A stretch of DNA of 63,982 nucleotides, counting the filler, from Asterionella formosa (lineage: Eukaryota), in the NCBI GenBank assembly GCA_002256025.1. It is 5 parts of 5 records of this genome, joined end to end, with 100 filler letters (N's around TTAATTAATTAA, not from the genome) between each part and the next. Parts side by side here need not be neighbours in the genome. Positions count along the whole stretch, not along the records: positions 38,467 to 51,181 come from NKIB01007254.1; 4 more parts are not named here. One strand, written 5' to 3'. Shown here piece after piece: positions 14,214-63,982 of the stretch. A program made the position numbers and the translations under genes. Below the pieces are notes generated by a model that saw nothing but the letters and a program-made list of their open reading frames with translations, had not been told where the DNA came from and searched no databases. The number at the start of each line of letters is the position of its first letter. Within the stretch, counting starts at the first letter, position 1.

Positions 14214-15410
14214 GGTTGCGGCCCTCGGCTTAACCCTAGTTTGGAGAAAATGTCGCTAGGGTTTGTAAAATCGGCATGGAACAGGGAGTTTGCTGCTATG
14301 AGTTCCCATGATTCGACTGTCCATTTGAATTTTTGAATTAAATAGGAGTCGGCGCCAGATAGATAGAGTTTCATTTTAAACAAACGAAAATGATATTTAA
14401 ACGTTTATAATATATCTACGTTGCTGAGTGTAGACATAATTTTGTTCCATGCCAAAACACATATATAAATCAGGAGTATGCCTAAATGTGTACTCATGAT
14501 ATCTTTGATCCGTTAACATTGAGTCTTAGTTGCTGTCTGTAGATTAAATATTACTGGTACCTGGTACACCCAAAAGGCATATTGCTTTACACTCAGAGGC
14601 ACATACCGGTATATAAACCAATACCGGAGTAACGGTGTACCAGGATACCTGATACCGGTAGTACATAATCCTGGTTAAGGATGAAACTACCGGCAGTACT
14701 TGTTTTACCTACCAGGTACCGGTACAAAGAGCATCTAATACATGTGGCTCAAGTATGGCAGGCGTAGTTTTACAAGACCGGGATACTCCAGCCGATCTGG
14801 AGCAGGTGAGTAAATTCAATTCAACCAATCAGAATATGTGTAATGACGCGGCAACTTACCCTGGAGTCTTTTCGGACAGAGAATTATTCTTCAAAACATA
14901 CCTACGCAAGACTCTAAGTCTACGAGAACTTTTTTGCACGTACTAGTTCCGATTCCAATATTTTGGCGACTGTTGAAAAAGCTGATTGGGTCGACTTTTT
15001 GGAAGAGGATTGCTCTACATCTACGGGGTTTCATGACGATTAAAATTGATAGCCGTGTACCCTATAACGTCAGGAGTTAACTTCTGGAGAGAAATGGCAG
15101 TAATGTATCATAGATTTTTAGAAAAGCTTCGTAGCCCCCTTTTTGACTATTCTTGCGGTAGTTACGAATCTATGATACATGACTGCCACTTCTCTCCAGA
15201 AATGGGGTCCTTACCATATCTGTATATAGATCTTACCCCTAAGTCGAGCAATGACAGTATCTAAACATATGCAAAGTGGTCGTAACGGTGAAAGCTAATT
15301 TTACCTTCAACTATTTTATTTACTTGTACTTGATGTGTGGATTGACGTACCTCATAAAAATATTTTGGGAAAAAATGGACCTCGCAATTTGTAATTGCGG
15401 GGCCGCAACC
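14214..15410. mobile_element. Candidate non-autonomous element with short TIRs, flanked by TTAA (or TA)
   Basis: TTAA|GGTTGCGGCCC at 14210..14224 and GGGCCGCAACC|TTAA at 15400..15414, a 15-bp perfect inverted match. Non-coding interior. Confidence 0.45.
15082..15201. repeat. 35-bp inverted repeat with 50-nt spacer (hairpin or mini-MITE)
   Basis: 15082..15116 vs the reverse complement of 15167..15201: 33/35 identical. Confidence 0.85.
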
Positions 15411-23759: not shown

Positions 23760-24790
23760 AATGCTTTCGAAAAAAATGCAGAATATCACACAGAGCATTT
23801 AAAAAGCTGACATCCACACTGGAAATTCAGATTTCAGGTAATGAGCCCTTAATTCCCGAAATTGTGGTATTCATTGATTTGCAATGGGTGGCTGGTGGCA
23901 GTTACATTGACGTTCGACACACCCATGCTTCCAGTTTTACCATTGCTTCAATTTATCGATGCCCTGATCTTTTCATTGATGCTTTGGTACTCAATTGTGA
24001 AGGGTTAAAGATTATATTTCCAGAGGAAAAAGAAGATTTTTTTGATTGGCCTTTGACTTTTAGTGTAAAAGCTCCAAAGGCTTAATAAGAAAATTTGTTG
24101 GTGATATTGACGGCTTCCTTGCCACAACCAACTACCCAACTGTAGTTGAAATTGACCACCATCCCGGTCCCTTTTTCAGGTCACTACATGACTTATGGAA
24201 TCAATGTCCAGGCTTTTTGTGACGCTGACTCACGATTTAACTATTTTGGTGTGATTGCACCAGATAGATTTAGTGACCAAGTAGCTTGAACAAACTTCCA
24301 TCTTCGATCAAGTTGCTGCATTCGATACAGGTTTCTCGCTGTTCAGCGAAGCAGTATACACAAAGACTGATGTAGTCCTCGTTCCCTTTGTTGGTTCATA
24401 ACATGATGATCCAACACAGGATGCAAATAAATTTATTTATTTCACAAAGCCGAGGATAAGAATAGAAATGCCATTTGGTATACTTCAGAAAAAATGGTGG
24501 CTGGCTGTGTCTTGAAAAAGAGCCTATTAACAAGCTTGGAAACATCTGCACAAGCTCTTGAATCATGTGCTCGACTTCACAATTATGTTACTAATGAGAA
24601 GAAAATTAATAACGAGATTTAGGATGATAATCGAATTCTTGCTGAAATAATCCCAGTTGCCTCATCACCCCTTGGTTGGGGCTACTTACCAACTGTGGAA
24701 CCATTGTGTAGCTAAATTTCCTGGAAACTCGTCTGTTATGAGAGATGTTATTCTTACCAGACAGCGAATCTTGGGCTAGCAATGACCTCC
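23760..24790 (+). pseudogene. Degraded PIF/Harbinger (DDE_Tnp_4) transposase
   Basis: Fragments LQWVAGGSYIDVR, GDIDG, FFSGHY..YGINVQAFCD..SRF.YF, RIRIEMPFGIL..KW, CARLHNYV and SPLGWGYLPTVEP, with many stops and frameshifts. Confidence 0.8.
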
Positions 24791-25370
24791 TGTCAATATA
24801 GCGAGGAGAAAAGAGATAAATGAAATTAATTTAGCTAATATAGACTTATAATAAATAATTTAATCATTACTAATCATTACCTGGTGGATTTAGATAAGAA
24901 TCTGCCTGGCTGATGTTTCACCTTCTGGTGAGAGCAGATGAACATAGTAATGATCCCTCTTTCTATTGAATATCTTAATTTCTAGACAATGCCGCCCATC
25001 ATGGAGAATCCTGAAGGTAGTACTACATTATGGAGTAAAATGCATGTGAATTTTGTCACTTCATTTTTCCTATTCGAACCTTCATGAGCGTGAACATCCT
25101 GAAAACCAAATCAAAATTCAAGCGACGGGAAGAACTTTGTTCTTGAATCCCCAAGAAGGTTGTTCATATGCTGCGAAAACTTATACTAAAGTGATACATT
25201 TCAAAAAAGAAATTGATGAGTTAAATCCCTGGCGTTTTGGGATTTCCAAACAATACAAATCTCATTCAACTCATTGCACATGAACTCCATCCAAGAACTA
25301 ATGTGAGTGTTATTGTGGATGTTGATCATGACAATCCGGAATAGAATTGTGGTGGAGTCACTTATTAAAA

Positions 25371-25553
25371 ATTTGAAATTAAATTTTATAGTACATTAAA
25401 GTTATCCAATAAACGCACTAGTGCCCACATGTTCAATGGAAACAATTAATACCGGTTTCGTTCGTCTGTACAGTACAACGGGACCTGACTTTTCTTCAGC
25501 CACACACCCCGGAACCCTAGCGACTACATGAAAAAGATAGGTGGAGAATGCAG
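25371..25553 (-). mobile_element. Second copy of the tRNA-derived SINE (head lost in the N gap)
   Basis: Its reverse complement aligns with 48711..48905 (CTGCATTCTCCACC...GGTCCCGTTGTAC...GGGCAC.AGTGCG...GTACTATAA). Confidence 0.85.
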
Positions 25554-29380: not shown

Positions 29381-32201
29381 TTATTGGTTAGCGAAGGGTC
29401 AGCGAAAGGGGGGTCCAGAGCAAACATTCCAATCAGGACGAGATCTACAAAAAAACGGGCCCAAAAAGTCGAGGTCAGAGTTCAACTATTTCTAGGCAGA
29501 ATACTAAGAACATGTATTAAATTCACCATTCGATTCGGAAAATTTTTTAAAAGTAGGGGCTATTAACCGGAGAATTATTGGAGCTTGCGCTTCATGAGAG
29601 GCAGCGACCAAAGTTTGGTTGCAACTACACTGGAACAGAGCAGGGAGTAGTTATATGCAGTGACTCCAGTGTCTTTATCGAAGATGCCTACCAGTGTACA
29701 GCCCGATAGTATGTACTCTGTTACCAGACAGAGATACCAGGAAAAGGCCCAGTAATCGATAAATTTAGCTTTCTTTCTAATATTACAACAAACCAGCTTT
29801 TACCAGACCTTCGATAGGTGCAGGGTACCTAGTACAGGTAGACAATATACTTGGTACATACCGGTCGTCCACTTCTATGTATGCAGAGAAGAATTTATTC
29901 TATGTACGTATGCATGACATAGTTAGGAAATATATTCTTATCCTAAATAGAAATGGTGAAATTGATTGTAATCAACATCATGATGGAAAGACGAAGAAAC
30001 AACAATTCACCATGACAGATACACGAACACAGGGCGACAATTTCTGAGCAGGACTGCGTAAATTCTACACTTCTACCATACCAGAGGCCTATGCGAAGTG
30101 CCATGGCAACTACTCTTTTGCTGAATGTGATAATTTTCGACTATATTTAGCTTCTAAAGCGGTTTCCAACATTGACAAGATGATTGTGGAAGGTGCGAGA
30201 TTTTGTCGCCATGGTACATGCAATTTGGATGCTAGTAGTGAGCGATGAAATCCAACAAGGCCCATCACTATCTATATTTCCTATTCATCTGACAAACCAA
30301 CAATAACAAATCATCATGGTGTGTTGTTGAGTTATATTCAAAAGTGAATAACAAAATTACACATGATCATTATTGGAACTACCATCAAAATATTCCTCAG
30401 TCTCTTCCTTGAACAAAAATGGTACTCAACAGTTGATTACCCATTGGTTGCTTGTTTTTTATGGACTTGGCTGTCTATCGCAAGTATATGTGCAAAGAAA
30501 ATCAGTTAGGGTGCAGCAGAAAGTTGATTGGGAAAAAGATTTCCAAACTCACCTGCAGTTGCAGCAAACAATCGACTGTGCAGTCATTGGCAGACTTATC
30601 TACAATGCTATTGACAAATTTTACTTCTTGGAGAAGTGTCCAAAACTGAGGTGTTGCATGCCTGGCTGGATCCACCTCAATAAAGCAAAAAGGCAAACGA
30701 GTTCTTAGTAGGAGAACATGTAATCTCAATAATTCCATGGACACATGAAATTATATGAAGGTTGACACGACCTTATGGACCAACTTACTAATGATGGTGC
30801 TTGGTGTTGCATCACCCATGAGGGGGGCATCAAAATTCAGGTCAAGACATACCAAGTAAATTCTAAAATAATTAGTCAGTTTACTATAGCGAAAGATTCA
30901 TAACAATATCCTCTAAGTATCCACTCTTACTAGTACTCATTTCTGTACCTGACATTCCAGATCAAAATTTTCATTTGTTCATGTCAAATGCTTAATGTGG
31001 AATAGCAAAAAAGTGAAATTGATCTGATTGATTCCATAAATGAGAGAATTTTGTTCTCACTATTATGATGTACTCCTTCCAGGTACCAGATAAGATTGAA
31101 AGTGTAAGATATAAAGTAAAATGTTTTAGAAAACTGGAAAAACTGAAATGATATCCATCAGCCATTCCATTTAAGGTTTCATGCAAACATTACTGATTCC
31201 GAACATATTCAGTACACACTACTATTAGGTACTAAGCTTTGATCAACATGGTATAGTCAATATAGTATGTGTTCATGAAACAATAATTTGCTGGATATTG
31301 TTCATGGTAACCTGGATCTTGTATTCCAATATAATCGATAATCCTCTAAATTATGGAACATCAAACCACAAGCAACCCTGGGGCATTGTTGTTGGGATTG
31401 AACAAGTGTTCTGCTTCTTGCTTTACAGTATTGGCAGTAGAGAAATACCGTATGATCACTGGAGAATGTAGACAGTACTTCATACTTAGTCACTTACCGG
31501 TAAACAGGTTCGTCACATCCTGTATTATTACGACATGCATACATCGCCACACGGGAGTTACTCGGAGTCGTACGCACGTTCAGGGATTCAGTATTTATTA
31601 GCTACCGGTTGTCCTGTACTGGCTGTATATGCTTACCGGTATGTGCTAATGAATGTATCCATCTATGAATGTATATATTTAAAATCAAGAATAGCCATGT
31701 ACATATGACCATCAGTGGACGACATACAAAAAAGAGGTATGGATTTAGTGCACATCCATTAGGAGTCCACGTACAAATGCACAGGTATCATACCTATAAA
31801 ATATAATTAAAATTTTTGTCATCAAACCGCAATCATCGTCATGACATGAAACACGATCATCATACGACCGGCACTCTACATAAGCGAATGGACATACATA
31901 GCCGTACCCAGGTACGAAGGTCTGCGGTATGTGCTTCACTGTATACTGTGAGTAGTATTTAAAAAAATGAGAAGCCGTGAAAGACACGGTCACGGTACTG
32001 GTACTGGGAAGACTGTGCGAGGAGTATCAGGGTTACCAAGCAAGGCTACGTACTGTAATGACGAAGTGCCAGTACCACCCCGGTACCAGGGGTACCTGGT
32101 ACCAGATACCCTGGAATCTGGTACCAGTACCGGTAGGACACAAACGGAGGAAGCAAATAAAAACAAACTTCGAATCTCCATCATTTGAACAGTTTTTCCG
32201 A

Positions 32202-38142: not shown

Positions 38143-38322
38143 CAATACACGCCCGAGGTGGTCTCTTGCCTGCGAGTATACATGTGTACTCGGCTGGGTG
38201 GCGCGAGTAGGTTGACCGTACGAGTGGCGCCCCCGGCGCTGCGAGAAGGTCACCCTACGAGTGCCATCCCAGTCGAGTACACATGTATACGAGAAGGCAA
38301 GTAGCCGCCGAGAAGGGTATTG
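38143..38322 (+). other. Long rod-like foldback with four symmetric CGAG/CGAG internal loops
   Basis: Arms pair over ~85 nt each. CGAG at 38154/38309, 38173/38290, 38204/38258 and 38221/38242 face each other. Most other mismatches are G.T. Confidence 0.85.
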
Positions 38323-38466
38323 TTGAGGCAATTCCCGCTCTAGCTATCGTCGCGTCATTCGCTTACNNNNNNNNNNNNNNNNNNNNNNNNNNNNNNNNNN
38401 NNNNNNNNNNTTAATTAATTAANNNNNNNNNNNNNNNNNNNNNNNNNNNNNNNNNNNNNNNNNNNN

Positions 38467-39300
38467 TTTTTTCTTCCTTCTAACGTTAAGTTTAACATTG
38501 TCAGCAAAAACGGATGCTCGGAATGTTTCATTTGTTTATCAATAGGTGAACCATCACTGAAAACTGCTAGGGCAACAAATAAACACCCTGTCTTCAACAC
38601 TCCATTTTCTGATGCAGGAGAATTGTTGAATGCATTTTCAAACCAAGTCGCAGAAGTTACTTCGTCATATATGCGTTCTCCACAAGTTGTAAGTTTCACT
38701 TGTGGGTGACATACAAAATGTTGCATGATATCGGAATCACATAGCAATCCTGCCATGAGCTGTACTGGTTCGAAATAATGGAGTGTGCGTGGGATGATCA
38801 TATTTGAATTGTTATCAATCTTTATTTGTTTGGTCAACAGTTGAACACCAGCTTATGTTGGTGGAAATGAAATATCCATGCGTTTTTTCAAAGTCTGGTA
38901 GGATGGAGCTTGATACCTTCCATCAAAATATTTCATTGCTTTTGCCTTGAATAGCCATTTCATTAGATGATCAAAGTAAACTGGTGGTGGAAGATAATTC
39001 TCGTTGAGGAATAACATGAGTTCTAATTTGATTGGATGCATGTTCAGAGAATGTTTACTTGGAAGTTGAAATTGAGGAGGAAGGGGCATTTCCATTGCAT
39101 TTTCAGGGAGAAAGCCGGTGCGATCTTGAAAATCTGAATATTGCATGGTTTCTGAATTCAACCCTTGGAGAGGAGGTTTTAGTCTCAATTGTTCGTCCTG
39201 TTGTGACTGAATATTGTTATAAACTGAATCGTCGCTGTCGTCATGAAGTGGATGATTGTGGTCACTTGATTCAAGGATAGGACACATAATCTCTTCTTGT
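38467..39300 (-). pseudogene. Plavaka-like transposase remnant
   Basis: RIYDEVTSATWFENAF...ALAVFSDGSPIDK....EHPFLLTMLNL resembles the Plavaka Y.E..T..WW...I...D.T..D...P...T..N block. Confidence 0.55.
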
Positions 39301-39509
39301 CTAATCTCCCTAAATGCTGCAGCAGTTACAATGCCATCATTAACTTCTTTCCTTGAATGATTCGATGCACTACCGCAATACATAGTTTCACTATGTATTC
39401 CAGGAACTCGATGTTCTTGCATGCAATGTCGACAGTGACCATATGCATAAAAAACCCATCATAGTCATGCAATGTGCACATAGAGTAGAATACGGGAGTG
39501 CCTTGGTAT

Positions 39510-39900
39510 TGGTTGGCTAAATTATGAGCAGACAAGACCCGGGTAAAATGGACTCTGCCATGACGGACATTTTCTTGCAAAGCCTGCGTTTTTGTAGCAA
39601 TATGACGGATTAATTTACCCGCATGCGCAATGATTTGTGCAGCAGAATTGTCTTCTCCAATGGAAATAGCATCATGATAAGGAATTGACATTTCCTCCAT
39701 GTAAATGCGTAGCCACAAAACATGTTTAGATAAGGTGGTGGCTGCATCAAGTTCTGCTTCAGTAGTATTGTATGCTGTTGTACTTTGTTTGCGGCACAAT
39801 GTAATTACTGCAGTATCATTAATCATAATGACACCACCAGAATATGCCAACCGGTCAAATATGGCACCTCCAAAGTTAGCATCTGCATAGCCTTTGGTGG
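39510..39900 (-). pseudogene. Ty1/copia RNase H fragment
   Basis: GYADANFGG...SGGVI...RKQSTTAYNTTEAEL...EDNSAA...RHI...NLAN. Confidence 0.85.
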
Positions 39901-40019
39901 TAGGTGCTATTCCAAGAAGAGGTTTGCTGATATTAGAGAAATGTTTCTGTTCTTGAAGCGTGGATGATAATGAGGTAGATACTGATGGAGTGGTACCGTC
40001 CTTGCCTTGTTCCCAGTCT

Positions 40020-41044
40020 ACGACAGTGGCCACCTCCTACGCACCGCCAACGCCTCCCCCCCTTACCCCCCTTAACGCCTCTAAAGATGACCATTCCTGG
40101 CAGTTTAGTCACCGCCCAGCACATCACATCCGCTTTGCGGGCCTCTGCCACCACACTAGGACCCTCTCTGGGTTTCTTACCATCAGACGTCAGCGCCTGC
40201 TCCCTCTGGGATGGCGGCGCCATGGCCCTCCTCTGTGCCTTTGTCGACTCCGACCGCATTCGCCTTATTGGCCGATGGCGCTCCTACGAAATGCTCCGGT
40301 ACCTCCATCTTCAGGCCCAGCCCGTCATGCGCGGTCTGGCCCAAAAAATGCTTACTGGCAGCATGTACACCCTCCTCCCTGGGCAGGACGTGCCCGCCGC
40401 CTTTCCAAACCTCGTACCCAACCCATAGACCTCGCTCACTGTCCCAGTTTCATCCTTCTCCCACCCCATTTCCGCCGGTGGCTGTGTAGGGCTCAACATT
40501 TGCCCCTTGGCAAATTTAGAAGTAACGGTTCCCCGAGGGACCCCAGTAAATAGCCGTTACCACCACCACATGTAACAATGGTACCGGTATAGGAGTGAAT
40601 GACTAGTCTAGGCGGCTAGTGCCGCCGTAGACTGGGAAGGCAAGGACGGTACCAGCAGGTACGTAAAAACAACCTGTGGTACAAACCACCGGTGAACACA
40701 TCACCCCCAAAATTCTGCAATTCTGCTGGTTGTTGAATCGGAACCCTCATAATTCCTTGAATCGCAATCCTGCCATTCAACTGGTGAAACCAAAACGGAG
40801 ACCCCCATAGTCTCCCCCTCCTTGGATATAGCGATCAGGCCATCCCACTGGAGGCACTGATCAATCCTCACCCGAATTAGCTCGGAAACCCACCCAGGCC
40901 CACCCTGGCTCAACATTTGCCCCTTGGCAAATTTAGAAGTAACGGTTCCCCGAGGGACCCCAGTAAATAGCCGTTACCACCACCACATGTAACAATGGTA
41001 TAGGAGTGAATGACTACTGGTAGTCTAGGCAGCTAGTGCCGCCG
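40020..41044 (+). mobile_element. 3' end of a tyrosine-recombinase (Ngaro/DIRS-order) retrotransposon
   Basis: YR C-terminus ITSALR...SACSLWDGGAMAL...IRLIGRWRSYEMLRYLH, followed by direct repeats at 40490..40627 and 40907..41044. Confidence 0.75.
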
Positions 41045-41170
41045 ATAATACCAGTACGTAGTTGACTGCTCTATTTGTATTATGGCTGTGGTGAATACTG
41101 TATACAGTGTACCTGGTACCAGATGGTAAATTAATTAATACTCGGAGTATCATGATATAATTGTTCGCTC

Positions 41171-42664
41171 ATGGCTTATCTTCTGACTGATGAAAATCCG
41201 ACAAAACTCATACCGTCCTTATTTCCACACAAAACGAAATGGATCTTTGCTGAAATGGTCGACGAATCAACTCCTCTTTTCCCCTCTCTTTCGAAGGCGG
41301 GTACCATGATCATCGCAATTCCATCGTCCTGGCACGACTGGCTGATGATACTTAACCCCATGTATCTTCCTCGTCGCTTATCAGTGTTGAAATTCAGGCT
41401 CCGCATCACCGCGGAGCTTTATATTCTCGTGCCGCTCATGAAGCTCTATAATTCCATCATAGGCTCGCTGTTGCCAACTCCAGTTGTGCCCTGGTATTAC
41501 GACCCTGAAAACCACGTGGACGACGCCATTATTGAACCCAACCTCATGCTGCTCTCCAAGCGCCTGCAGGCAGACTTTTACACCAACAAGTACGGTGCCT
41601 ACCTTCGCCGCTCCCTTGGGTTCATGAGTCGGGTCATGCCGTCCTATATTCGAGGCATCACTGCCATGCCACACAACGAGTCGTCGCTCTATAACTACAT
41701 CGCCACCACGTCCCTCTCTTTCTCCTGTGCTCCGGATGGCCTGACTCTGGACCTTACCATCTTCAATCGCGTGCCAGAGAGTCCTGATCGCAAGAATCCG
41801 GTCTTGCCTGGATACATCTTCAAGTTGGACCACACCAATCGAAAGGCGTACGTCTTTGAAGGAGAGGATTCCGTACCGCCCAGCACTCCGAATGTCACGA
41901 CAGTGGTGAGCACTGCCCTTCTGGCCTACACACACTCGTTCATTCACTTCCATTTTCCCACCTCAATGGCATTGTTTGCCGATAAACTCATGCACGACCC
42001 CGTCAAACAAGGAAGCCGACTGGCGAAGCTGTTGGACACACACACGAGATTCACGTTGGTGATCAACTTTGCTGGACACAATTCGTTCTTCCCGGTCCAG
42101 AAACAGGATTCTTCCTTTCCTCATTGTTTCTCCATTACGCAGCACGACTTTGCGTTTTTGAACATTGCCCGTACTCAGCATTACTACTACCTGACTGGGG
42201 AAAATCAGTGTGGTAGCTTCGTGACTCCTTCTTGTCAGTACAAGGACATGTATGACTTTGATGATCGATTTGTCTTTCATCGGGTTGTCAAGATGTATTA
42301 CCCGTACATCGACAAATACGTTCGAGAATATGGTGTGGAATCTGATCTATTGGAAGAATTTGTTGCCTTCTTGAAAGAAGCTGTGCCCTCGATCGAAATC
42401 AAGGACCCCATGACAATGTTGGTGACATTGATTTGGCAAGTATCTGTGTTTCATTCTCTTGATCACTTTGCGATTTTCCAGCAGAGGGAGTACATGGCCT
42501 TTGGAAATCCCAAGGATCCCTGGAATGTGGCAGCTTCCCGTTACACCTTGGAAACATATGTCGACCCATTTGCGTCTCCAAACAAAGGTGAATACTTGCA
42601 CCATCATCTTGATATTGTCGGGTTGCCCAACTGGGACGGTATCGTTAGTTCCATTTCTTTCTAG
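41171..42664 (+). CDS. Divergent lipoxygenase-like protein (catalytic domain only), intronless
   Basis: Motifs occur in LOX order: THSFIHFH (metal His pair), LAKLLDTHTRFTLVIN (cf. KLL.PH.R.TL.IN), LIWQVSVFHSLDHF (cf. IF..S..HAAVNF) and C-terminus IVSSISF-stop (cf. IPNSISI). Confidence 0.7.
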   Translation: MAYLLTDENPTKLIPSLFPHKTKWIFAEMVDESTPLFPSLSKAGTMIIAIPSSWHDWLMILNPMYLPRRLSVLKFRLRITAELYILVPLMKLYNSIIGSLLPTPVVPWYYDPENHVDDAIIEPNLMLLSKRLQADFYTNKYGAYLRRSLGFMSRVMPSYIRGITAMPHNESSLYNYIATTSLSFSCAPDGLTLDLTIFNRVPESPDRKNPVLPGYIFKLDHTNRKAYVFEGEDSVPPSTPNVTTVVSTALLAYTHSFIHFHFPTSMALFADKLMHDPVKQGSRLAKLLDTHTRFTLVINFAGHNSFFPVQKQDSSFPHCFSITQHDFAFLNIARTQHYYYLTGENQCGSFVTPSCQYKDMYDFDDRFVFHRVVKMYYPYIDKYVREYGVESDLLEEFVAFLKEAVPSIEIKDPMTMLVTLIWQVSVFHSLDHFAIFQQREYMAFGNPKDPWNVAASRYTLETYVDPFASPNKGEYLHHHLDIVGLPNWDGIVSSISF

Positions 42665-42687
42665 TGTGCAATTTCTTGAACCAATTT

Positions 42688-45600
42688 TGTGAGATATCTG
42701 ATGGGTTTCCGGGTTATGATTTTGAATTCAATTTGTAACTTGCCACCGATTTACCTTCTTGGTGTTCGTGATGGACATTTGAGGTTCATCTGTGGGTCTC
42801 CTTCAGGGTATTCTGATGGCGATTGGACTATCATCTGTAATGGGCCTTTTGTGCGATGTATGCACTCATCATTCCTGAATATCTGAAGGCTCATGGGTCT
42901 TCGTTTTACGCCATTGTATTGGCGAGTATTTGCCTGGTTTGGGTTATTCTAGATAAGGCAAAATACTTGTTACGATCATATAATTAAAATTAGACTTATT
43001 TCCCTGTGTCTACTGTCTTACTGATTATAACAAACTAGGTTTATTTACGGATATTTGTCGGTTTCCCACACGCTTCCCCTGTGCAAAACGACAATCGTCG
43101 TAAGAAGACTTCCGTCCAACATTCTCCGTCAATCCAATCGACTTTGTGGACTTGATCCCAACATGGCTCAAGCAATCAATGCCCCCTCGGGTTTTTGTTT
43201 TCGCCCTTACACCTGCTATTGCAAACCCAGACCCTGTCGATTACAACACCAGTGAGGGAATGAAACTCTACAAGTCTGCCACGGAGAAACTTCATCACAC
43301 CTTCGACGGTGAGACAGGCAGTCTCCGCCTCTTCCTTCAAGCCTTGCAGCAGAGAGCGGATGCATTCGGATGGGAGTTCATCCTCACTGTTCCAGATGAG
43401 CAGAACATTGGACGCAACTTGATTACAGAGTATGGTCGTGTATCCATGGCAAATGTAATTGCTCACGCAACCACCCATGTGCATACTCAGACGCATGACG
43501 CACAGAACAGTGCCCAGCTTTTCACATGCATCTATGACTCTTTGTCCCTTGAGGCATTGCTCAAGGTGTCTACGGACTCATCTACATATCGACTTGCATC
43601 TCCCAACGCCCCTACATATGTCGTTGCCAGCAGAGCCGCCTTCCTCAAGCTACTTATTACAAGGTGTACAGTTGATACTCAATCTACTGTCGCAACTATT
43701 CGCCGCACTCTAAGTGCGCTTGACCAGTACATCCTGTCCGTAAATTGCGACGTTGAAAAATTCAACCTACATGTGCGCATTTACAGTGCGATGCCTTGTT
43801 GTCTCGTGGTGAAACATCGTCTGACCTCTTGACCAATCTATTTACGGCATACGAGGCCGTGGAAGACGAGGTTTTTCATGACTATATGGTTGGACAGCAG
43901 GACCAGTATCATGATGGGCGAGTGGATTTTGATGCTGACTCCCTAATGGACCTTGCCCTCAATAAATTTAAGATGCTTGTGGAGTCTAAGAGGTGGAATC
44001 TACCTTCTGCTCAGGATGTCAGATTGGAGGCTCAAATTGTTGCACTCACGGCCAAATTGGAATATTTCAAGGCCAACCGAAATGTCACTCCTATCGGCAA
44101 GAAAGAAAAGGAGAAAGCTAGAAAGGCTAAGCTCGCCAAGAAATGGGCCTGGAAATTGGTTCCCCTAAGGAAAATGACCCCAAAACGAAGACTGTGGACA
44201 CCAAGGAATATCATTGTTGTATCCACCATGCTTCATGGACAGTGCATACAGCAAAGGAGTGTAATCTAAATTCTAATGCAACACCTGTGACCAATAAGCC
44301 AGTGAAGAAACCCGTCAAGGACAAATCGGCTGATGCGATTACCCTCTCCAACGCTTTGGCCAGTATCATGGAGACGCAGGATGATGATGACGATTCGAAC
44401 CAGAGGGAGGACGATGTTTCAGTCACGGGCTAGAAAATGGGCCGGAGAATGATGACCATTTTAAGTAGCTTATTTAGCTATGGGTTATATCAATATATTC
44501 TCTGTGGGCCGGTTTTTGTGACTCTCGTGTCGGATTACCTTTCTATGTCATCGGAAGCATGCCTATGGTGCATATGGTTTCTTGTGATCTTTGTGAGCAC
44601 CCCCTTTATGCGCTCTGCATCATCTAGTCAGTACATACCAAAGCGAAAACGTTCCAAGATTCCACTATATGCTTACGCTGGGTTACAATATGGTATAGGC
44701 ATTTTCGAAGCCATGCTACGAAAGATGGAATTCTCTCTGGCCTGATCATCAAAACGGTGCCAATCTCGCCATGGACAATCATGGGTTTATGTGGGCGAAA
44801 AATGGAAGGTGCCTCATAAAATGCGCCCGACCATGATGCGGGCCTACATAGCAACGTCACACCCTCCTATGGGATACAGTATGTCTACCACCTATCAAGG
44901 TTGCTCAGTCACACCACGACCATTTGACTCTGACAGTTATCTACTAATGATTGACAATTGCTGTTCTAAATGCGTCACCAATTGTCGCACCGACTTTGTA
45001 GGTACCCCTACTCCGGTAAGAGCCCAAATAAGTGGCGTGGGAGGCCCCATAGCTACCGGTTCTACTGAAGGGAACGGTTAAGTGGAAAATAGAAGATGAT
45101 ACGGGACGTGTTCACATTTTTCGTATTCCTGGGACATTTTATGCGCCCAAGGCCCCATTTAGGATGTTATCACCCCAACACTGGAGCAAAGAAATTAATC
45201 GTGGTCGGATTGGAACTAAGGGAGCATGGTGCACTACCTAGCTATGAAGATAGGGTGACCTTGTGCTGGGACAATAATCTCTATGTTTGAAATGTCAAGC
45301 TGGATCCAGCTACAAATGTAGCTACGTTGCTAACTGCCCCAGGGACTAACTGATATCAAATATATGAGGCGATTCTCAAAACGCAAGTAGAGTTCAAAAC
45401 AGAGCTTAGGTGTTTTAAACTAAACACTGTTCCTGACAATAAGTGCATCTGGTCTGATGGTCAGGCAACGGAGCAAGATTCAACACTCCCTTATGACTTT
45501 GATGAAAATGCGGAACTCATGTGGAAAGAACAAAAGCCAACAACAGTTCCTAAGTTTCCGATGACCACGGCTGAGAAACAACAGAGAAGTCTCACGACTA

Positions 45601-48513
45601 CTACTGACCAGCCCGGATTCGATCTTTTCCATGATACCGATGCCCGACCCATCGAGATTGAAGAACAGGATGCCATGACTTCTACTGCCCAACTTTTGCG
45701 AGTCCATTACCAGCTGGGACATCTTCCTTTCAAGCAGATTCGCTGCATGGCGGGAACTGGTTTTCTGCCGAAGAGCCTCCTTCAGGGAAGAATCCCAAAA
45801 TGCGCTGCTTGCATGTATGGCAAGGCCACTTGCCGAGCGTGGCGATCCAAGGCCCCACCGGGCAAGGTGGGAGGAGACCTGCCTGCATTCCCCGGAAAAT
45901 GCGTGTCAGTCGATCAAATGCAGTCGCCCGCACCCGGCCTTATTGCGCAACTGAAGGGAGTTCCGACTACTCAAAGGTATACTGCGGCGACGATTTTTGT
46001 GGATCACTTCAGCAGGTTGTCATATGTCCACCTGCAGAGGTCCTTGACATCAGACAATACGGTCCGAGCGAAGAGGGCGTTCGAGCGCTATCGCGCATCG
46101 CATGGTGTGAGGGTATTGCACTATCATGCCGACAATGGCCGATTTGCGGATACCCTCTTCCTTCGCGACATTGATGAGCAACGACAGGAGATTTCGTATT
46201 GTGGGATGAATGCCCACTTCCAAAATGGAGTGGCGGAGAAGATAATCCTTGATCTACAAGATATGACTCGTACTGCCCTCCTGCATGCCTTGGCGAGGTG
46301 CCCAAGCGCCATATCAAATTGTCTGTGGCCATATGCGCTGCGTATGACCAATGACGCCCTGATCAGCTCCCCAAGGCGGTTGGATGGGCGATCAGCTGTG
46401 AGCGTCTTCTCACGTGCCGACGTGTCCCCAAAACTCAGTACATTTCGCCCATGATGGACGATCCTATCGCTTTTGCGGCCAAGACGTCCAATCCTGATAC
46501 GTTGCAAGCCGACCAGGCCCTGCGGGAACCCGACCGAAAACAGTTTATTGCGGCTATGGAGGCCGAGGTGATGGCTCACCACAACAATCATCACTGGAAG
46601 GTGTTGCCTAAGTCTGCGGTTCCCTATGGGACCAAAATACTACCATGTGCGTGGGCTATGAAGCGCAAACCTCGCATACTAGCCTCAAGGGAGGTTTATA
46701 AATGGAAGGCTAGACTAAATCTACATGGTGGCAAGCAGGAATATGGCGTGAACTATTGGGAAACTTATGCAGCAACCCTTTCATGGCCACCCATCCGCTT
46801 TATGCTGATCCTGTCCCTCATGCATGGGTGGAGTACATGCCAGATAGACTTTACACTTGCTTATCCACAAGCAGATGTGGAATGTGACATGGAAATTCCT
46901 CATGGTTTCAATATGCCTGAGGGGGGTAGGTCTGATCATTGTTTGAAGATATTGAAGAACATTTATGGACAAAAACAGGCTGGGCGAACATGGTCTAAGC
47001 ACTTGACAAAAGGCTTATTGTCTATTGGATTTGTTCAAAGTGAGGCTGATGAATGCATCTACTATAGGGGTACGACTGTATTTATGGTATATGTGGATGA
47101 CAGTATCTTCATAAGTCCGGATGCCTGCCTAATCGATGAGTGTATTGAACTCATGTGGGCTATTTTTAACTTGACGGATGAAGGGGACATTTCGGACTAC
47201 CTGGGGATCCAGGTATCCATATCTGAGGATGCTGCTACTATCACCTTGACTCAACCCCATCTCATTGCTTCTATAGCCGATGATATTGGCTTTACCAACA
47301 AGACCAAATCTAAGGGAGTTCCGGCATCACCCACCGTTATTCTGCAGCGGGATCTCACGGGTGAAGATTTTGCTGAACACTGGTCATATCGATCCATCAT
47401 TGGAAAGCTCAATTTTCTGGAGAAATCCACTCGTCCTGACATAGCATACGCTGTGCACCAATGTGCCCGTTTTTCGGCTAACCCAAAGGCATCCCATGCT
47501 GCGGCGGTCCGTAACATCGTTCGCTACTTGATAGGGACGCCTGCGCAAGGAATCGTGCTACAGCCTAATGAGCACTCTTTCGTGGTGTGGGCGGATGCTG
47601 ATTTTTGCGGAAATTAGAACAGAGACACGAGCGTGATTGATATGATGACAGCCAAGTCTCTATCCGGATATGCGATTACTTACGCATCCTGTCCGGTGTT
47701 GTGGGCATCAAAGTTGCAGACCGAGATGGCGCTGTCCACCACTGAGGCAGAATATGTGTGCCTCAGCCAATCTCTTCGGGACACCATTCCGCTTATGAAT
47801 TTGCTGGCTGAGGTCAGGGACAAGCTTGATAAGGATGTGATATCAGTTCCAGCTGTCCGCTGCACCTTGTTTGAGGATAATTCCGGGGCATTGGAGTTAG
47901 CCCGCACTCCCAAGATGCGCCCCCGCACCAAACACATCAACATTAAATACCATCACTTTCGTGATCATGTGCAGTGCAAGCTCATCAGCATTGAGCACGT
48001 TGCGACTGAAGACCAGGTGGCTGATATTTTTACCAAGCCACTCCCTGTGGTGGCATTCTTGCGTCATCGCAAGTCGTTGCAACGCTGGTGACCTGTGAAT
48101 CTGTGAAAGTTGTCTCCTCGAATAAGGGAGTGTGAGATATCTGATGGGTTTCCGGGTTATGATTTTGAATTCAATTTGTAACTTGCCACCGATTTACCTT
48201 CTTGGTGTTCGTGATGGACATTTGAGGTTCATCTGTGGGTCTCCTTCAGGGTGTTCTGATGGCGATTGGACTATCGTCTGTAATGGGCCTTTTGTGCGAT
48301 GTATGCACTCATCATTCCTGAATATCTGAAGGCTCATGGGTCTTCGTTTTACGCCATTGTATTGGCGAGTATTTGCCTGGCTTGGGTTATTCTAGATAAG
48401 GCAAAATACTTGTTACGATCATATAATTAAAATTAGACTTATTTCCCTGTGTCTACTGTCTTACTGATTATAACAAACTAGGTTAATTTACGGATATTCG
48501 TCGGTTTCCCTTA
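42688..48513 (+). mobile_element. Full-length but defective Ty1/copia (CoDi-like) LTR retrotransposon
   Basis: 383-bp LTRs at 42688..43070 and 48131..48513, with about 7 differences by eye. 5-bp TSD AATTT at 42683..42687 and 48514..48518. Polypurine tract AAGGGAG. Domain order gag, protease (IDNCCS), integrase (H..LGH..C..C, VSVD, HADNG, QNGVAE), RT (YVDD), RNase H (ADAD, TTEAEY, EDNSG). Frameshifts, stops and an apparent deletion near 46450. Confidence 0.95.
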
Positions 48514-48660
48514 AATTTGGTTTACATACTAACGTTTTCGTGTTCTGTACACCAGTTATAATGCCAGGCACTTTTATAATATATGCAGAGAATAATGCTG
48601 TAGGAGTGCAAATTTAAGTAACAGTGCTGGCTGGCACAAGCTTAATATATGTAGCAAGTA

Positions 48661-48905
48661 GGGGAGTGGCTTGGTGGTTAGCACACCTGATGCGGTGGCA
48701 GGTTCGATTCCTGCATTCTCCACCTGTCTTTTTCATGTACCGGTAGTCACTAGGGTTCCGGGCTGTGCGGCTGACGAAAAGACAGGTCCCGTTGTACCGT
48801 ACGGACGAATAAAACCGGTACTAATTGTGTCCATTTATTCATTTATTTGGGCACGAGTGCGATTATAGGATAGCTTTAGCGTACTATAAGATTTGATTGA
48901 TAATT
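48661..48905 (+). mobile_element. Complete tRNA-derived SINE with TSD
   Basis: tRNA-like head: GGGGAGT/ATTCTCC acceptor stem, A-box-like GTGGCTTGGTGG and T-arm GCAGG-TTCGATT-CCTGC (B box), with a shortened anticodon arm. Flanked by the direct repeat TTAATATATGTAGCAAGTA (48642..48660 and 48906..48924). Second copy at 25371..25553. Confidence 0.88.
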
Positions 48906-51281
48906 TTAATATATGTAGCAAGTAGCAAAGCGTCGTTCTCAATTTTTGAGGAGATGATTCGTATTTTCGTCATGGTCAAGGTTGCTTGTGACAACATGAT
49001 ACAGGATACTCCAGCTGCTTACCATCACTACCTGTCTACTCTAGTGTTAAATATGTACAAAGGAATTGCAACCTTATAGCTAAATAATTATATACCAGTA
49101 CATACAAGGACCAACATAATTATAGCACAATAAATTGTCTATGACTAGACAAAATTGGGTGCTTGATTCCACATCAGAAAAATATACAGGAAGGGGGGCC
49201 ACGAAGGTCCGGTAGCGCACGTTTAATGCGCAACTTTTCAGTTTTGACACACTCCCAATGGATCATATACTTGCCTGCCGGACGAGATTGGCCAGCTTTC
49301 GATGAAAAAAATTTCCTTAGGTAATTTAGGATACTCTACTCAAAAAATTATGACGATTTGAACACGACTTGGATTTGCTGCCTGATCAACCGATTCAGCA
49401 AACTATCTTCTTGCTTCGGAATACAAATAGGAATCATTCTACGTTCTGACTACATACAACTAGAACTTGAGGTTGAATACAAATAGATTTTCTGAATGAC
49501 CCTTCTGCAAATGAAGAACTATACCTTGTCGGTACATAGTAACTTTTTAGCATGTAACCCCTGAAGCACTTGTTGGTTGTTGGATGAAGTGGGAGCTGAT
49601 GAGGTGCTTGCTTCAACCTATTGATTGGCGATTATTGTTGTTTTCCAAGAATAGCTACATTCAATAGCAGACGACTCTTCACTCATGGCATGACGTTAAT
49701 GTATCTCAAGGTCAATAACAGCTCTGAGGAAAGAGGAGCAAAACATTCCAGTTATCAGAAGAGTAATTGTCATTGAATCAAGCTCATTTTTCCACAATAC
49801 TTTGTATACTATATGTATAGCTTTGTCTACTAGCTTTATCGTGATGAAACTACTTCTAGATGCTGTTTCTACGTCAAAACATACCAGATCTATAATTCCG
49901 AAAAAAAATTAATTGTTACTTCGCAATTTTCAACTTCTTCATCGCTCAGCCAATCTTGGTCACATTTTAGACTTAAGCTAGCCGTATACATTAGCTTACT
50001 CAGCTTGGAATGTGACCAGTATTGGCAGCAGGGAAATGAAGAAAATCGATTTCCAATCAACCCCTCATTTCCTTTCTCTCAATCACAGTGACAAACCGAT
50101 ATTAATTTTGCTGTAAACAATGAAAATAATTTAGAATTCTTTTTACAACCAAAATCAATTCCCCTTTAAGTCACGCATCTAATAAAATCACAACATGTGC
50201 ATTGCATGTATTGTGTGACTGTGGCAGCCAAGGGAATCCTGCATCATGTCATCTCCGCCTTGACCATGATAAAAATAACAAATGTCTCTGTGGAAAATGA
50301 AAACGACGCTATGCTTTTTGATAAAAATGTATGACACGACAATGATAAAACAATCATTAAAAAAACTGTAATAACACTAATATTGACAATGCAAATTGAA
50401 GTCACCAAGAATGGTGCATTTCTTCACATAGTTAAGATTATGTATAATTTTCAAAATGACGAAGCGGCGATAGCCAAGATTTAATATTTTCACATCATGC
50501 AATCTTGTGTAATCTGTAGGGTGAACCAAATTTTGTTTGATTCTCTATTTAACAATATCAATTATTAGTCCATTGATATTTTTAAAATGACTCTCACAAG
50601 TACTGATCCAGTTTTTGACTACATATGACAAGAAATTTGCTGACAATGACTAGATATTGAAGACTACCAATTGAACTTGATAACCATAAATAGAATTTGC
50701 TTACTAAGACTAGAAGTTACTGAGTGATTTGTGAACTTCTTTATAACCAAGCAAGCCACATTCCAGTTCCTGAATACGATTAGTACCTGTTGAAGTAGTT
50801 GAACACGATTTCGATAATCAGAAGACGACTTGCTTGGATTCACGAATAATAATTTGATGACATATAAAATCATTCAAGAGAGTTTGGAATGGAAAGCCAG
50901 CCTTACCAGTAGGCATGGAATGAATCATTCTTGGGAGTGAGTCGAATCCGAAAAAGTGCTCACAGAAGGTGCAGTACCTGGTGAAGTATCTAACTAGAAG
51001 TAGTAGTATTTGTTGAATATATGAGCTTATTTGTTAATCCTTGTGTGTTACTCGTTCTCCAAGTCGACATCAAAGTATACAATGAGGGTTAGTCGAGTTC
51101 TCTCATTATTGAGTTCTTATACATATATGATATAACACTAACCCTATATACATCTGTATTGATGCGCAAGATCGCTCACTCNNNNNNNNNNNNNNNNNNN
51201 NNNNNNNNNNNNNNNNNNNNNNNNNTTAATTAATTAANNNNNNNNNNNNNNNNNNNNNNNNNNNNNNNNNNNNNNNNNNNN

Positions 51282-51900: not shown

Positions 51901-52803
51901 TTGAACTTGCATTGGATTTGACAGCAGTAACTGTAATGGGAGATCAAAGTAGTTCCAGTAGGAGGTGATAGAAACCTTGAAGGCACCACAATCACATGGT
52001 ATCTGGTGTACCAGTACCTGTTACCAAGGTACCAGGGGTACCTCGTTCCAACAAGTTGCGTTAATTTTGCTTAAACTAAAAGCTTAGTTTTTTTTATCCC
52101 ATACTAAATTGTTTATTTAAGCAAAATGACGGCAATTTGCAGCTACCATGGATCATAACCATCCGGTACTTGGTACCTGGTACTGGTAGACGACAGCCAA
52201 GTGAAGGACGATACGATGTATTCTTTTCGTACTGGTAGCAGTCATATTTTCAATGATCATACGTACCGGTATGTAAAATAAGCCTCGGCCGGTCGTGTTG
52301 GAGAAGAGAGCGGGACCAAAGGAAGATGCATTCGCCTGCCGTTACGTATACGGTGGTGGGCAGTTAACCATTACACAAGACTCTTTTTAAATTTCGGAAC
52401 CGGTACCGGTACCGCCATTATGCCAGGTACTCCGATTACCGGTAACAGGTAATTACCGGGAGATTACTATCTTTTGAAAGCGTATGATCAGCCCTGCTGA
52501 TCGTACCTGGTATACGTGCTGGAGTACGAATCAGGTCCTACCGGTCCCACCAAGTACCTGGTACTCCGAGTACCAGGTACCTGTACTTGAAACTGATGCA
52601 GTGTAATTTAAAGCATCAAATCCAAACCCAAGCAACAGGCAGGACATCAGATTCTATCTGCAACTCATGTTACTGATAGTAGTAGAGCAAACTGCTTCTT
52701 ACCGACAGTTTGGTGGAGATATGGTATAATAACAGTTTAGTGTCTTAAGCTAGCACGATTAAAGACCTGCCTTCGATAAACATGTTCATTTAAGTTGTTC
52801 CCT

Positions 52804-53850
52804 CTATTGGGATCCTCCCAGAGAAGTAACAAGGCCACCGGTCAAAAACCTCGAGGACGCTGCTTCATGTAATCCATCTTGTTGCAAATTCAGCAACCAA
52901 TCCAACGCTAGTTGGTCCTTTTTCCGTTTCGGTAGTGGGTCTTCGTTGTTTTCTTCGTCCGGCAAATACAAGGAGGATCCCCGACTAGACCAACTGGCAT
53001 CATCCCCTAGAGTGTCTTCTTCGTCCGTCAGTGTTGTGGTACTTCCTCCTGTCAAATGATTAGCCAATCGAATGGATGGAATGCTCAATTGCCGTTCGTC
53101 CAAAGGGATGCTGCGAGGAATGAAGATATTTCCAGCAGCATCCGGAGTAACGCCCACGGTGTTCCCTTCTTTCTCTCGATCCGGTTGGTAGGGAGTAAGG
53201 TGGGAGCCCTGTTTTTGTTGACTATGATAGCAGTGTCGAGAGTTGAAGGAATAAAATTTGTGCAAGAGTGGGACAGGTTTCAAGTCTTCTTCGGCAATGG
53301 TCGCTGGAGTAGTAGTTGATGTATTTGTCATGAGCGAGTTTGGATGCATAATGGAGCTCAAGTTCCCAGCGCTTTTGGTGCGAATATGGTGATCCAAAGC
53401 CAAAGGTCGTCTCTGTAACGAACTAGTAGTGGCGGTAGCAAAGTCCGGCCCGGATGGTAGAGTCAAGTGCTCGCCCTGGAGTGTTCCATCGTCAGGACTA
53501 ACCACCACATGGTAGGGTTCTTCCTCACAAAATCCTGTATTTCGAGTCACAGGCGTCAGTTCCGAGTGGCAATGAATGGTGTTGCGGGTTGCTGCAGGAG
53601 GGGCTCGCGAATGTGTTGGTGACATGGTTCGCGGCGATTCCGCGCGAGGTGCCTCTTGCTTGGGTGACGCGTCCATCAAGGAGGGCGAGGACTTGTTTCG
53701 GGGTATGCTCGTCTTGCCCGACGGAATTGGAGGCGGCGTGTTGGCTCTCCAATTGGGGACCATGATAGGTCGAAAGTGCGGAGGACTGATGCTTCGTCTT
53801 TGATCGCCGCTCAGTCCCGCTTCGATCGTCTCCAGGAGTTCTGGTTCCAT
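52804..53850 (-). CDS. Hypothetical Ser/Pro/Thr-rich, probably disordered protein
   Basis: 348-aa ATG-initiated ORF with gene-like GC content and a short helical C-terminal motif ALDWLLNLQ...EAASSRFL. Confidence 0.7.
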   Translation of the reverse strand: MEPELLETIEAGLSGDQRRSISPPHFRPIMVPNWRANTPPPIPSGKTSIPRNKSSPSLMDASPKQEAPRAESPRTMSPTHSRAPPAATRNTIHCHSELTPVTRNTGFCEEEPYHVVVSPDDGTLQGEHLTLPSGPDFATATTSSLQRRPLALDHHIRTKSAGNLSSIMHPNSLMTNTSTTTPATIAEEDLKPVPLLHKFYSFNSRHCYHSQQKQGSHLTPYQPDREKEGNTVGVTPDAAGNIFIPRSIPLDERQLSIPSIRLANHLTGGSTTTLTDEEDTLGDDASWSSRGSSLYLPDEENNEDPLPKRKKDQLALDWLLNLQQDGLHEAASSRFLTGGLVTSLGGSQ

Positions 53851-54694
53851 TGCGCCTAAATTGTTTCAATGAAATTTAAATTATGCTGTCACTTCTGCGA
53901 TCCCCTACCGTTTCCCTGCGACCTGTTCTGCCGTCTGATAAGTGCACTTGTCGTCTTTGTGGTTGACAGTTGTTGCAATCACTTCATGCAGCGAAGGGAA
54001 GTCTCTGCTTTGAAAAATAGAGTATTTCCTTCGTGAAACACTCTGCTGCACTCGATGGACATTTTGTAACACGAAATTGGCCACTGAAATTTCTTTCCTT
54101 TTTTTGACTTGGACTCGGACACACATCCCTTGCACGACGTGGAAGGCTCGGAGCCCCAGCGAGTCCTGTAAGCAGAAAAAATAGCTACGTATATGGATAT
54201 CATATAAACTCTTTTGAACATTTTGATAAAGTTTCAGTACATACTGTATCATCCGTTGCGCAGTCCTGGCCAACGCTATAGGTCGCGGAATTTTCCAATG
54301 CGCATGAGCAGCGCGTGTGGGACCGAGTCAGTCACGAGTGGTGGAAAGACTTCGGGTGTCAATTTATTGTTCGTACAGTACGGTATGTGTGGCATGTATG
54401 ATATGATTGAGAGTTGATAGGATGGATTCGTACATGCGTAGCTAGCTACACGTAAGTAAAATAATCAAATGATACTACCGGTACCTGGTACTGGTACTGG
54501 TACTACCGGTATCCTTGATGATGTTTTTGTGGATGTGTTCCAAAAGATCTTCCGTTCTTGCCTTCATAATCGGCGTGATAGCAACACACTGCACATTGCT
54601 AACGCACAGCTACTTGTACACCGGTACTGCGGACTGCTGCAACGCAACTCCATTTGCTTACCGGAAGCTACTTGACAGCTCCATCGTTGAAAAC

Positions 54695-63246: not shown

Positions 63247-63982
63247 GATGGTCAACTAAGAATAATAGGAATATTCGAAAATGATTTGGTTCCAACATTC
63301 AACAAGTTGGTAAGAATACTTTGTACCGGTACCCTGGTACCTGGTACCCCTGGAACCTGGTACTGGTACCTGGTCCAAGTACCTCACGATGGAGCGATAC
63401 CGGCCGGTAATTGAGTACCGGTACTGGTACTAGGGTGGCTGTACGCTGGTATAACATGTACCAAAAGCATTTATGGATGATCATGCCACCAGAAGTAGGA
63501 GGAGTGTTTCAAGAACTACATACTAACATACTACCCCGAGGTGCCAGGGACTCCGCCTGGTACCTGCCTGGGTGTACTTACTACCGGTAAGTATGGTACC
63601 AGTTTGTCATCAGGCAGCCACCGAATCAAAGAGTGCCACTTACCCAGTATGGATGTTCCCGGACATGGGAAGGACCAAGGATGAGAGTGCGACGACATCA
63701 ACAACAACTAATATGTACGAGATAGGTATTAAATGTGCGTAGACCTTTATTTATGTATTTACGATCAGTACAGTAAGTTGAAACACATAGAGATTCCTGA
63801 TTCCTGATCAGGTTATGAGTGTCAATATATTTTCGCCTCTAGTGACCTGATTAGAAACATGTACCACAATCCACTAGATGATTGATTCAAGATTACATGG
63901 TTAAATATCGCGTGTAAAATGCCACAGTTGAGAGAGGAACTTTCAGGAGAAGTTCCCTCTAACCTGTTAAATGGACTCTAGA

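Follow-up and report, generated by a model that had tools for sequence, protein, structure and literature searches.

What process left this stretch of the genome of the diatom Asterionella formosa so rich in short motifs bounded on both sides by TA, and is it the excision of transposons? The stretch (63,982 nucleotides of assembly GCA_002256025.1, hereafter the window) is composed of five chunks of ~12.7 kb joined at 12740-12839, 25554-25653, 38367-38466 and 51182-51281 by spacers of the form N44-TTAATTAATTAA-N44. Because the chunks are joined by spacers, order and distance across them have no meaning and adjacency in the genome is not implied, and any feature that reaches the end of a chunk is truncated there, for example a copy of a short interspersed nuclear element (SINE)-like repeat that stops at 25553. 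The searchable sequence consisted of 62.5 kb of the window and the 2.5 kb of a related metagenome contig (L001). A sequence-only reading of the window had proposed that TA is turned by micro-insertion into TA-CCGG-TA, TA-CTGG-TA or TA-GC-TA, and the six motifs from which it started are all present in place (40582, 41015, 48738, 45050, 45239 and 24709). We observed a total of 71 units with CC..GG-type cores between two TAs, a count that uses a wider core set than the two commonest motifs, TACCGGTA and TACCWGGTA. The reading we favor, to which we give a probability of roughly 0.6, is that TA-CCGG-TA, TA-CC(A/T)GG-TA, TA-C(T/A)GG-TA and longer forms are scars left by the excision of Tc1/mariner-type transposons that target TA and have the ends CC(A)..(T)GG.

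The motifs were first compared with chance expectation, for which 100 dinucleotide-preserving shuffles were used. We found 28 copies of TACCGGTA where 0.40 were expected, 17 of TACCWGGTA, i.e. TACC(A/T)GGTA, where 0.29 were expected, and 31 of TAGCTA where 8.99 were expected, with none of the 100 shuffles reaching the observed number in any of the three cases. A scan of all 8-mers placed TACCGGTA as the most over-represented in the window, above a CAA microsatellite. Base order and flanks both mattered. The four other orders of two C and two G between TAs had 0-3 copies each, the 29 other orders of CCAGG had 0-2 copies each, and CCGG, with 28 copies between TAs, had 0-3 copies within each of 15 other palindromic flanks. 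The units are therefore bounded by a duplicated TA target, as is the excision footprint of an ITm element. A negative control of 80 bacterial loci, collected with a transhydrogenase query, contained 16 units in 835 kb, against the 71 in 62.5 kb of the window.

Enrichment over an order-1 expectation was 84-fold for CCGG, 59-fold for CC(A/T)GG, 15-fold for CTGG/CCAG and 3.6-fold for CGG/CCG, and the short cores CCA/TGG, CC/GG, CG and C/G, at 1.2-1.6-fold, were not enriched. Longer cores were rarer (CCAGGG and CCAGGGG), and CCATGG occurred once. Most of what the process yields is thus cores of 4 or 5 bases. In 17 units a 5-base core had A or T in the middle, with CCCGG and CCGGG together accounting for one. 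Cores were palindromic or present in both orientations (CCAGG 6 and CCTGG 11; CCAG 9 and CTGG 10). Every enriched core is a prefix of CCA joined to a suffix of TGG. The earlier proposal that CCGG, CTGG, CCAG, CCAGG and CCTGG are combinations of CCA...TGG termini thus fits all five, with the qualifications that the short cores of the same scheme remained at 1.2-1.6-fold and that CTGG and CCAG may in part be products of CpG decay. This last point comes from the 24 one-mismatch variants of TACCGGTA, among which only TACTGGTA (10 copies) and TACCAGTA (9 copies) were strongly enriched, and these are exactly its two CpG-transition products. The remaining variants totaled 28 against ~10 expected, which suggests that many scars are old.

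Window-wide, the observed to expected ratio was 0.76 for CpG and 1.23-1.27 for TG/CA, and CpG transitions made up 10 of the 77 substitutions between close copies. Given these ratios and the two enriched neighbors of TACCGGTA, part of the CTGG/CCAG class may be CCGG after CpG loss by deamination rather than a separate junction type. Taken together, the CpG depletion, TG/CA excess and CpG transitions suggest that cytosine methylation has shaped this DNA, including sites inside the promoter-proximal scar units.

Units were also observed as differences between related copies. The features involved are the following, where a dot stands for no strand.
39994..40651, + strand: TA-flanked element of 658 bases with 13+13-base terminal inverted repeats, CCG..CGG ends and target TGG-TA-CCA; the only candidate relative of a donor.
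40490..40627, + strand: copy A of a duplicated 138-base segment, the right subterminal part of element 39994-40651.
40907..41044, + strand: copy B of the segment, a second, truncated copy without the terminal repeat.
40582..40589, dot: TACCGGTA unit, a 6-base insertion TA[CCGGTA] relative to the twin 40907-41044.
41015..41022, dot: TACTGGTA unit, a 6-base insertion TA[CTGGTA] relative to the twin 40490-40627.
48661..48911, + strand: SINE-like repeat with a tRNA-related head (48661-48722; 21.2 bits, under the Rfam threshold).
25363..25553, - strand: other SINE-like copy, consisting of the tail and truncated at the chunk border.
48738..48745, dot: TACCGGTA unit inside the SINE-like repeat, absent from copy 25363-25553.
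41110..41118, dot: TACCTGGTA unit common to the window and L001, where L001 has one more unit, TA[CCAGGGTA], at the downstream TA.

Alignment of copies A and B gave two reciprocal 6-base indels (40582 and 41015) and one substitution, exactly the paired differences TA[CCGGTA] and TA[CTGGTA] that had been claimed. The claimed absence of TA[CCGGTA] at 48738 from the SINE-like copy near 25.5 kb was likewise borne out, in a copy that ends at the chunk border; the alignment of 25363-25553 (+) to 48911-48711 (-) had 80.7% identity and included this unit along with two unrelated indels. The tRNA and Rfam scans of the window returned nothing at threshold.

The contig L001, the sole locus from a metagenome scan with a 497-residue protein encoded at 41171-42661, adds a comparison at the level of strains or species. 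It was 96% identical to the window over 1,636 bases covering the 497-residue gene and its upstream sequence, and the sole indel was the extra TA[CCAGGGTA], which follows the shared TACCTGGTA unit and so shows that chains differ between close relatives. Six units were observed within the 2.5 kb of L001. A second stretch of the contig aligned to 50575-50982 at 91.5% identity with five indels, one of them TA[GTA]. This homology stops exactly on TACCTGGT (50975-50982; 445-460 in L001), from where L001 continues with scar units and the window with unrelated sequence to the chunk end. The segment like 50575-50982 lies upstream of the 497-residue gene in L001 and ~8 kb downstream of it in the window; the break may reflect a rearrangement or a duplication, or else an inserted element may end there and run off the chunk. 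The 497-residue protein had one relative at 96% identity and a best named match of 66% in the diatom Attheya, with no relatives returned by scans of prokaryote genomes.

We counted 28 indels over all alignable pairs (seven pairs within the window and two with L001, excluding the tandem array at 18274-18997 and microsatellite matches), of which 6 duplicated TA. Six indels were at least 5 bases long, and 4 of these 6 were CC..GG units of the form TA[core+TA]. These counts support scars as a main source of longer indels at window scale, and it is at this scale that the suggestion of footprinting as a major indel source holds.

The direction of change could be read in a retrotransposon, in which the sequence-only reading had described frameshifts repaired by removing GCTA from TAGCTA, and it had made the same claim for a third site elsewhere.
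42688..48510, + strand: Ty1/copia long terminal repeat (LTR) retrotransposon, with LTRs at 42688-43067 and 48131-48510 that match at 375 of 380 bases without gaps.
45050..45055, + strand: TAGCTA at the copia frame 1 to 2 shift, best fitted by a 4-base insertion at TA.
45239..45244, + strand: TAGCTA at the copia frame 2 to 3 shift, where a 4-base insertion fits 12 of 12 homologues.
24709..24714, + strand: TAGCTA in a degenerate transposase-like pseudogene, without a demonstrated frameshift.

The copia element, called young, contained no CC..GG units and four copies of TAGCTA. Its best full-length homologues were 63-64% identical in the reverse transcriptase region, and Fragilaria was among the sources of copia-type homologues. 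Five copia polyproteins aligned by tblastn in frame 1 to 45042-45051, in frame 2 from 45053-45071 to 45190-45238, and in frame 3 from 45240 (four of the five). The removal of 4 bases or of 1 base was then compared by local translation against 12 homologues, drawn from 120 listed. At 45239, removal of 4 bases gave a gap-free alignment to all 12, and removal of 1 base needed an extra residue; here the claimed repair was confirmed, with the shift lying on TAGCTA. At 45050 the shift also lies on TAGCTA and removal of 4 bases gave the length of the 2 closest homologues, but the other 10 are one residue longer and compatible with a 1-base change, so that the claim is upheld for the position and only in part for the size. 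An open frame must have existed when the copia was functional, and these changes are accordingly gains, TA to TA-GC-TA. Judged from the reading frame, gain over the ancestral sequence is shown in the GC class alone. The element has a third TAGCTA, at 45319, that belongs to its native coding sequence, with N-V-A-T conserved in homologues, and therefore not every TAGCTA is a scar.

The site at 24709 lies in a degenerate, multiply frameshifted, transposase-like pseudogene (23717-24800, +), one ORF (open reading frame) of which was scanned and had no Pfam match, and which we take to be PIF/Harbinger-like from its motifs and not from a tool result. The peptide proposed for this site was recovered as described. 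The frameshift was not, as the sole informative homologue (P0149) stays in frame across the site by tblastn; an HMMER library search with the pseudogene gave three weak matches, and the short homologues were P0149 and P0150. The wider claim of TA-duplicating micro-insertions is supported as one of a sharply defined kind, with enrichment for TA flanks only and with the GC-type gain shown by the copia frame; the CC..GG differences may be gains or losses.

Two other features of the copia element were observed. Between the integrase and reverse transcriptase, at 46442-46454, ~200 residues are missing relative to five homologues and the frame changes, and in-frame stops (e.g. 44431, 44743 and 45351) occur despite LTRs that are 98.7% identical. 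This copy was probably non-autonomous or already defective at insertion.

The 71 units occupied 55 sites and were observed in all five chunks (11, 9, 18, 7 and 26 units), for a density of ~1.1 units per kb. Forty-two of the 55 sites carried a single unit, in unrelated contexts. The other 13 were head-to-tail chains in which successive units share a TA, accounting for 29 of the 71 units and reaching four units at the longest; random reuse of the 3,714 TAs in the window would give ~1 chained unit, by arithmetic from the unit counts. Sites were also clustered, with 52% of the gaps between them below 150 bases against 12% expected. Outside the TAs the flanks were not conserved, which indicates that the units are not part of a larger repeat, except for a G at -1 in 48 of 110 flanks (44%, against 27% of all TAs), a preference that makes the target look like G-TA-C. 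None of the 71 units fell within the 10.8 kb of confident coding sequence, where 12.2 were expected. Clusters were instead located 67-206 bases upstream of a phosphatase, 184-219 bases upstream of a transhydrogenase and 53-156 bases upstream of the 497-residue gene, all measured to inferred start codons. The main chain and clusters are as follows.
54476..54511, dot: chain CCGG-CCTGG-CTGG-CTGG (54476-54502, shared TAs), with another TACCGGTA one base further along; the inferred transhydrogenase start lies 184-219 bases downstream, and the CTGG-CTGG of the chain (54489-54502) is a perfect tandem copy.
52160..52590, dot: densest cluster, with 11 units in the kilobase bin 52001-53000.
63310..63600, dot: 7 clustered units, among them one chain of three and one of two.
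14530..14740, dot: cluster of 6 units with two 2-unit chains.
31980..32150, dot: 5 clustered units, with the inferred purple acid phosphatase start 67-206 bases downstream.

As excision scars, the units would have formed as follows. An ITm element would insert at TA and duplicate it, staggered cuts at excision would leave both flanks with a few bases from the element ends, and end joining would produce TA, about 2-3 bases from each end, and TA. The element ends would begin with CC(A) and finish with (T)GG, and two bases kept per side would be the commonest outcome. Some ITm relatives cut two, not three, bases inside the element. TA-GC-TA would represent a second, weaker class from another type of element. 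Each scar would create two G-TA-C sites, the mildly preferred target, and later visits would thereby build chains. In this scheme a transposase as the maker of the breaks, the nature of the element ends and the chain-building feedback are what we infer. The Tc1/mariner footprints proposed from sequence are consistent with the TA duplication and with the set of CCA prefixes and TGG suffixes, with neither a donor nor a transposase found in the sequence covered.

Several observations weigh against excision scars. Neither the window nor L001 yielded a TA-flanked element ending in CCA..TGG or G..C (or GC), so that the search for intact elements with terminal inverted repeats, as suggested by the sequence-only reading, was negative in both. 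No Tc1/mariner-type transposase was found among the window ORFs scanned against Pfam (82 of the 95 of at least 100 residues, the other 13 being overlapping frames in a 502-residue gene and the copia element). A filled locus was never seen, with scar against no-scar states seen at 4 sites. At about one scar per kb, the absence of a donor in 62.5 kb is uncomfortable. Single-end cores (CCA/TGG), expected from the three-base overhangs of mariner-type elements, occurred 9 times against 7.4. The polarity of the CC..GG class is without an outgroup, and in the case of L001, whose extra unit is bracketed by two TACCAG repeats, the difference could have come from deletion by slippage. The concentration at promoters would fit a selected regulatory motif too. 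Finally, the scars here are strikingly uniform, and excision sites in rice are mostly untidy (8 of 94 perfect; PMC4423477).

The search for donors covered TA-flanked inverted repeats within 6-9 kb that start with TAC or TACC, as well as every sequence that follows TACCNGG, and the matches were limited to scar-on-scar pairs, the CCG..CGG element and a 109-base miniature inverted-repeat transposable element (MITE). Two bases kept per end of the element at 39994-40651 would give CCGG, but not CC(A/T)GG. Its ORF (39979-40425) is a tyrosine-recombinase-like fragment without a Pfam match; the recombinase lead comes from a language model (Atlas) and from one homologue with a weak Phage_integrase match (E 0.058). 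The fragment had 309 longer homologues, mostly of 270-400 residues and some from marine eukaryote transcriptomes, and the 120 of these that were listed contained no Pfam domain and hence no DDE domain. The element may belong to a recombinase-bearing family of mobile elements of diatoms that is without a name. A scan of IMG/VR with its terminal repeat gave no matches.

The MITE (38179-38287) is a TA-flanked hairpin element whose 16-base terminal inverted repeats have one mismatch, and TACATGTA, the scar expected if two bases were kept from each end, is present only once in the window. A border-cut ORF at 38467-38852 (-) matches the Plavaka transposase family (PF18759, E 1.2e-6), which is related to CACTA/EnSpm, and is a transposase fragment near a copia-like one at 39326-40036. 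A candidate element end, TACCTGGTG at 166, was dropped because it lies inside a long ORF without a family match.

Comparison with known systems showed both likenesses and differences. The nick made by Sleeping Beauty and mariner transposases falls three bases within the element, and after end joining the bases of the overhang remain between duplicated TAs (PMC7827188). Tc1/mariner footprints (PMC7827188; Hsmar2, PMC3770610) resemble the window units in their duplicated TA, the few bases between, their palindromic or orientation-paired cores and a core length that depends on repair. The window scars differ from them in that the donor was not found, about two bases are kept per side instead of one three-base overhang, and units reach ~1.1 per kb in chains of up to four; they are also far more uniform than those of Hsmar2 (PMC3770610), or of Sleeping Beauty in some cell types. 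Rice scars (Roffler and Wicker 2015, PMC4423477) are similarly a genome-wide source of small indels, near genes and rare in coding sequence. Apart from the 8 perfect sites, most in rice carry deletions or filler and were found via filled sites, whereas in the window the scars are so uniform that they rank first among 8-mers, and their filled sites are missing. Stowaway/mariner excision in plants usually leaves a small duplication with short end sequences (Gilbert et al. 2015, PMC4561436), in which the Stowaway MITE and mariner scars are alike to ours; those elements and their ends are known, unlike those behind the diatom cores. Expression of mariner elements has been reported for other diatoms (PMC5963040). 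The closest likeness to the element at 39994-40651 was MarCry-1_FO from Fusarium oxysporum, in which a mariner-type element and a Crypton tyrosine recombinase are fused, with TA duplications (Kojima and Jurka 2011, PMC3212892). The two share terminal inverted repeats, TA flanks and a recombinase-like ORF, in our case a fragment and a lead, and the diatom element has no DDE transposase, so that we note a likeness and not membership.

The missing donor and transposase also suit a process in which TA-directed breaks are sealed without any resident excision, through a domesticated or abortive transposase or a TA-specific nuclease, with the units spread by local templated repair or slippage. Such copying would account for the 29 chained units and the 52% of gaps below 150 bases (against 12%), for the extra L001 unit between two TACCAG repeats, for the perfect tandem CTGG-CTGG at 54489-54502 and for a CCGGTA copy within about 100 bases of the SINE event. 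Chain neighbors, however, usually differ in length and sequence (CCGG-CCTGG-CTGG), unlike the product of simple slippage; the 42 single sites in unrelated contexts also count against it, and local copying does not supply the CC..GG of whichever unit came first at a site. We consider this explanation unlikely for the units as a whole, and templated repair or slippage may add to the chains.

Selection could also have multiplied TACCGGTA and TACCWGGTA, with GTAC at the joints, as transcription-factor sites in promoters, the indels being incidental. Such selection would fit the palindromic form of the motifs, the position of clusters 53-219 bases upstream of the start codons inferred for three genes, the conservation of unit 41110 in both the window and L001, and the absence of units from confident coding sequence. 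Binding sites arise by substitution, however, and four clean TA[core+TA] indels were seen. Units also occur in a SINE-like repeat and a transposon remnant, cores of 4, 5, 6 and 7 bases between fixed TAs are ill-suited to one binding site, and the TAGCTA insertions break a retrotransposon reading frame. The units thus lack the substitution origin and fixed length of a binding-site array, and selection is a distinctly improbable source for them; the promoter bias itself is real, and scars may later have been co-opted as regulatory motifs. That the differences are deletions from unit-bearing ancestors, or assembly or sequencing artefacts, has almost nothing to recommend it, for although each paired comparison has two copies and parsimony cannot tell gain from loss between them, the commonest motif is in up to ~80-fold excess, the copia frame shows a gain of the GC type, and the independently assembled L001 has the same motifs with one at the same site, which argues against an assembly artefact.

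A broader form of the excision reading, which we put forward tentatively and regard as rather unlikely, is that a TA-specific cut-and-paste system revisits its own scars and builds GTAC-rich arrays at nucleosome-free promoters, where they would be raw material for regulation. Footprinting, and not polymerase slippage, would then be the main origin of insertions of at least 4 bases in the genome, and chains would tally visits. In a bolder version the cutting enzyme would be a domesticated host gene, no longer in a mobile element, which would explain many scars without donors.

Transposon excision scars are textbook material, but they are normally rare and untidy, and it takes a filled site for comparison to find them. 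In the window one type of scar is the top 8-mer, at about one unit per kb, chained, outside coding sequence and just upstream of starts. We found no report of uniform chained scars at such density for any genome, and none on diatom scars, in a search confined to openly accessible papers. The mechanism is known; the scale, density, uniformity, chaining and promoter bias look new. Were the pattern genome-wide, cut-and-paste elements, thought minor in diatoms, would have written a large share of small insertions and promoter sequence, and the scars would be a countable, datable mark of past transposon traffic. The long-discussed seeding of regulatory sequence by scars would also become directly testable in a tractable alga. 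A caution for annotators is that motifs of this kind, when met in diatom promoters, are not necessarily binding sites.

Other TA-bounded motifs, at 2459, 41139, 52562 and elsewhere, were over-represented in the window: TA-CTC(C/G)GAG-TA with 3 copies against 0.02 expected, TA-AGTC-TA with 8 against 0.74, two of the 8 in the LTR pair, and TA-CA-TA with 69 against about 34. These may be scars of more element families. The motif at 41139 appears old, as L001 has the same length there with two substitutions.

A scan of IMG/VR for two-unit chains gave 52 loci, about the number expected by chance on a rough estimate, and was set aside as unrelated to the diatom finding. The six richest loci (L009, L012, L018, L041, L047 and L048), from different samples, were 100% identical over up to 6 kb and consist of a compact, phage-like, one-strand gene array that had no match in a phage collection, with TACCGGTA recurring in coding sequence. 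Within the window, a degenerate tandem array was observed at 18274-18997, with sub-repeats 74 and 231 bases apart and a longest self-alignment of 68% identity, and a 120-base tandem duplication at 13763-14013 was 97% identical.

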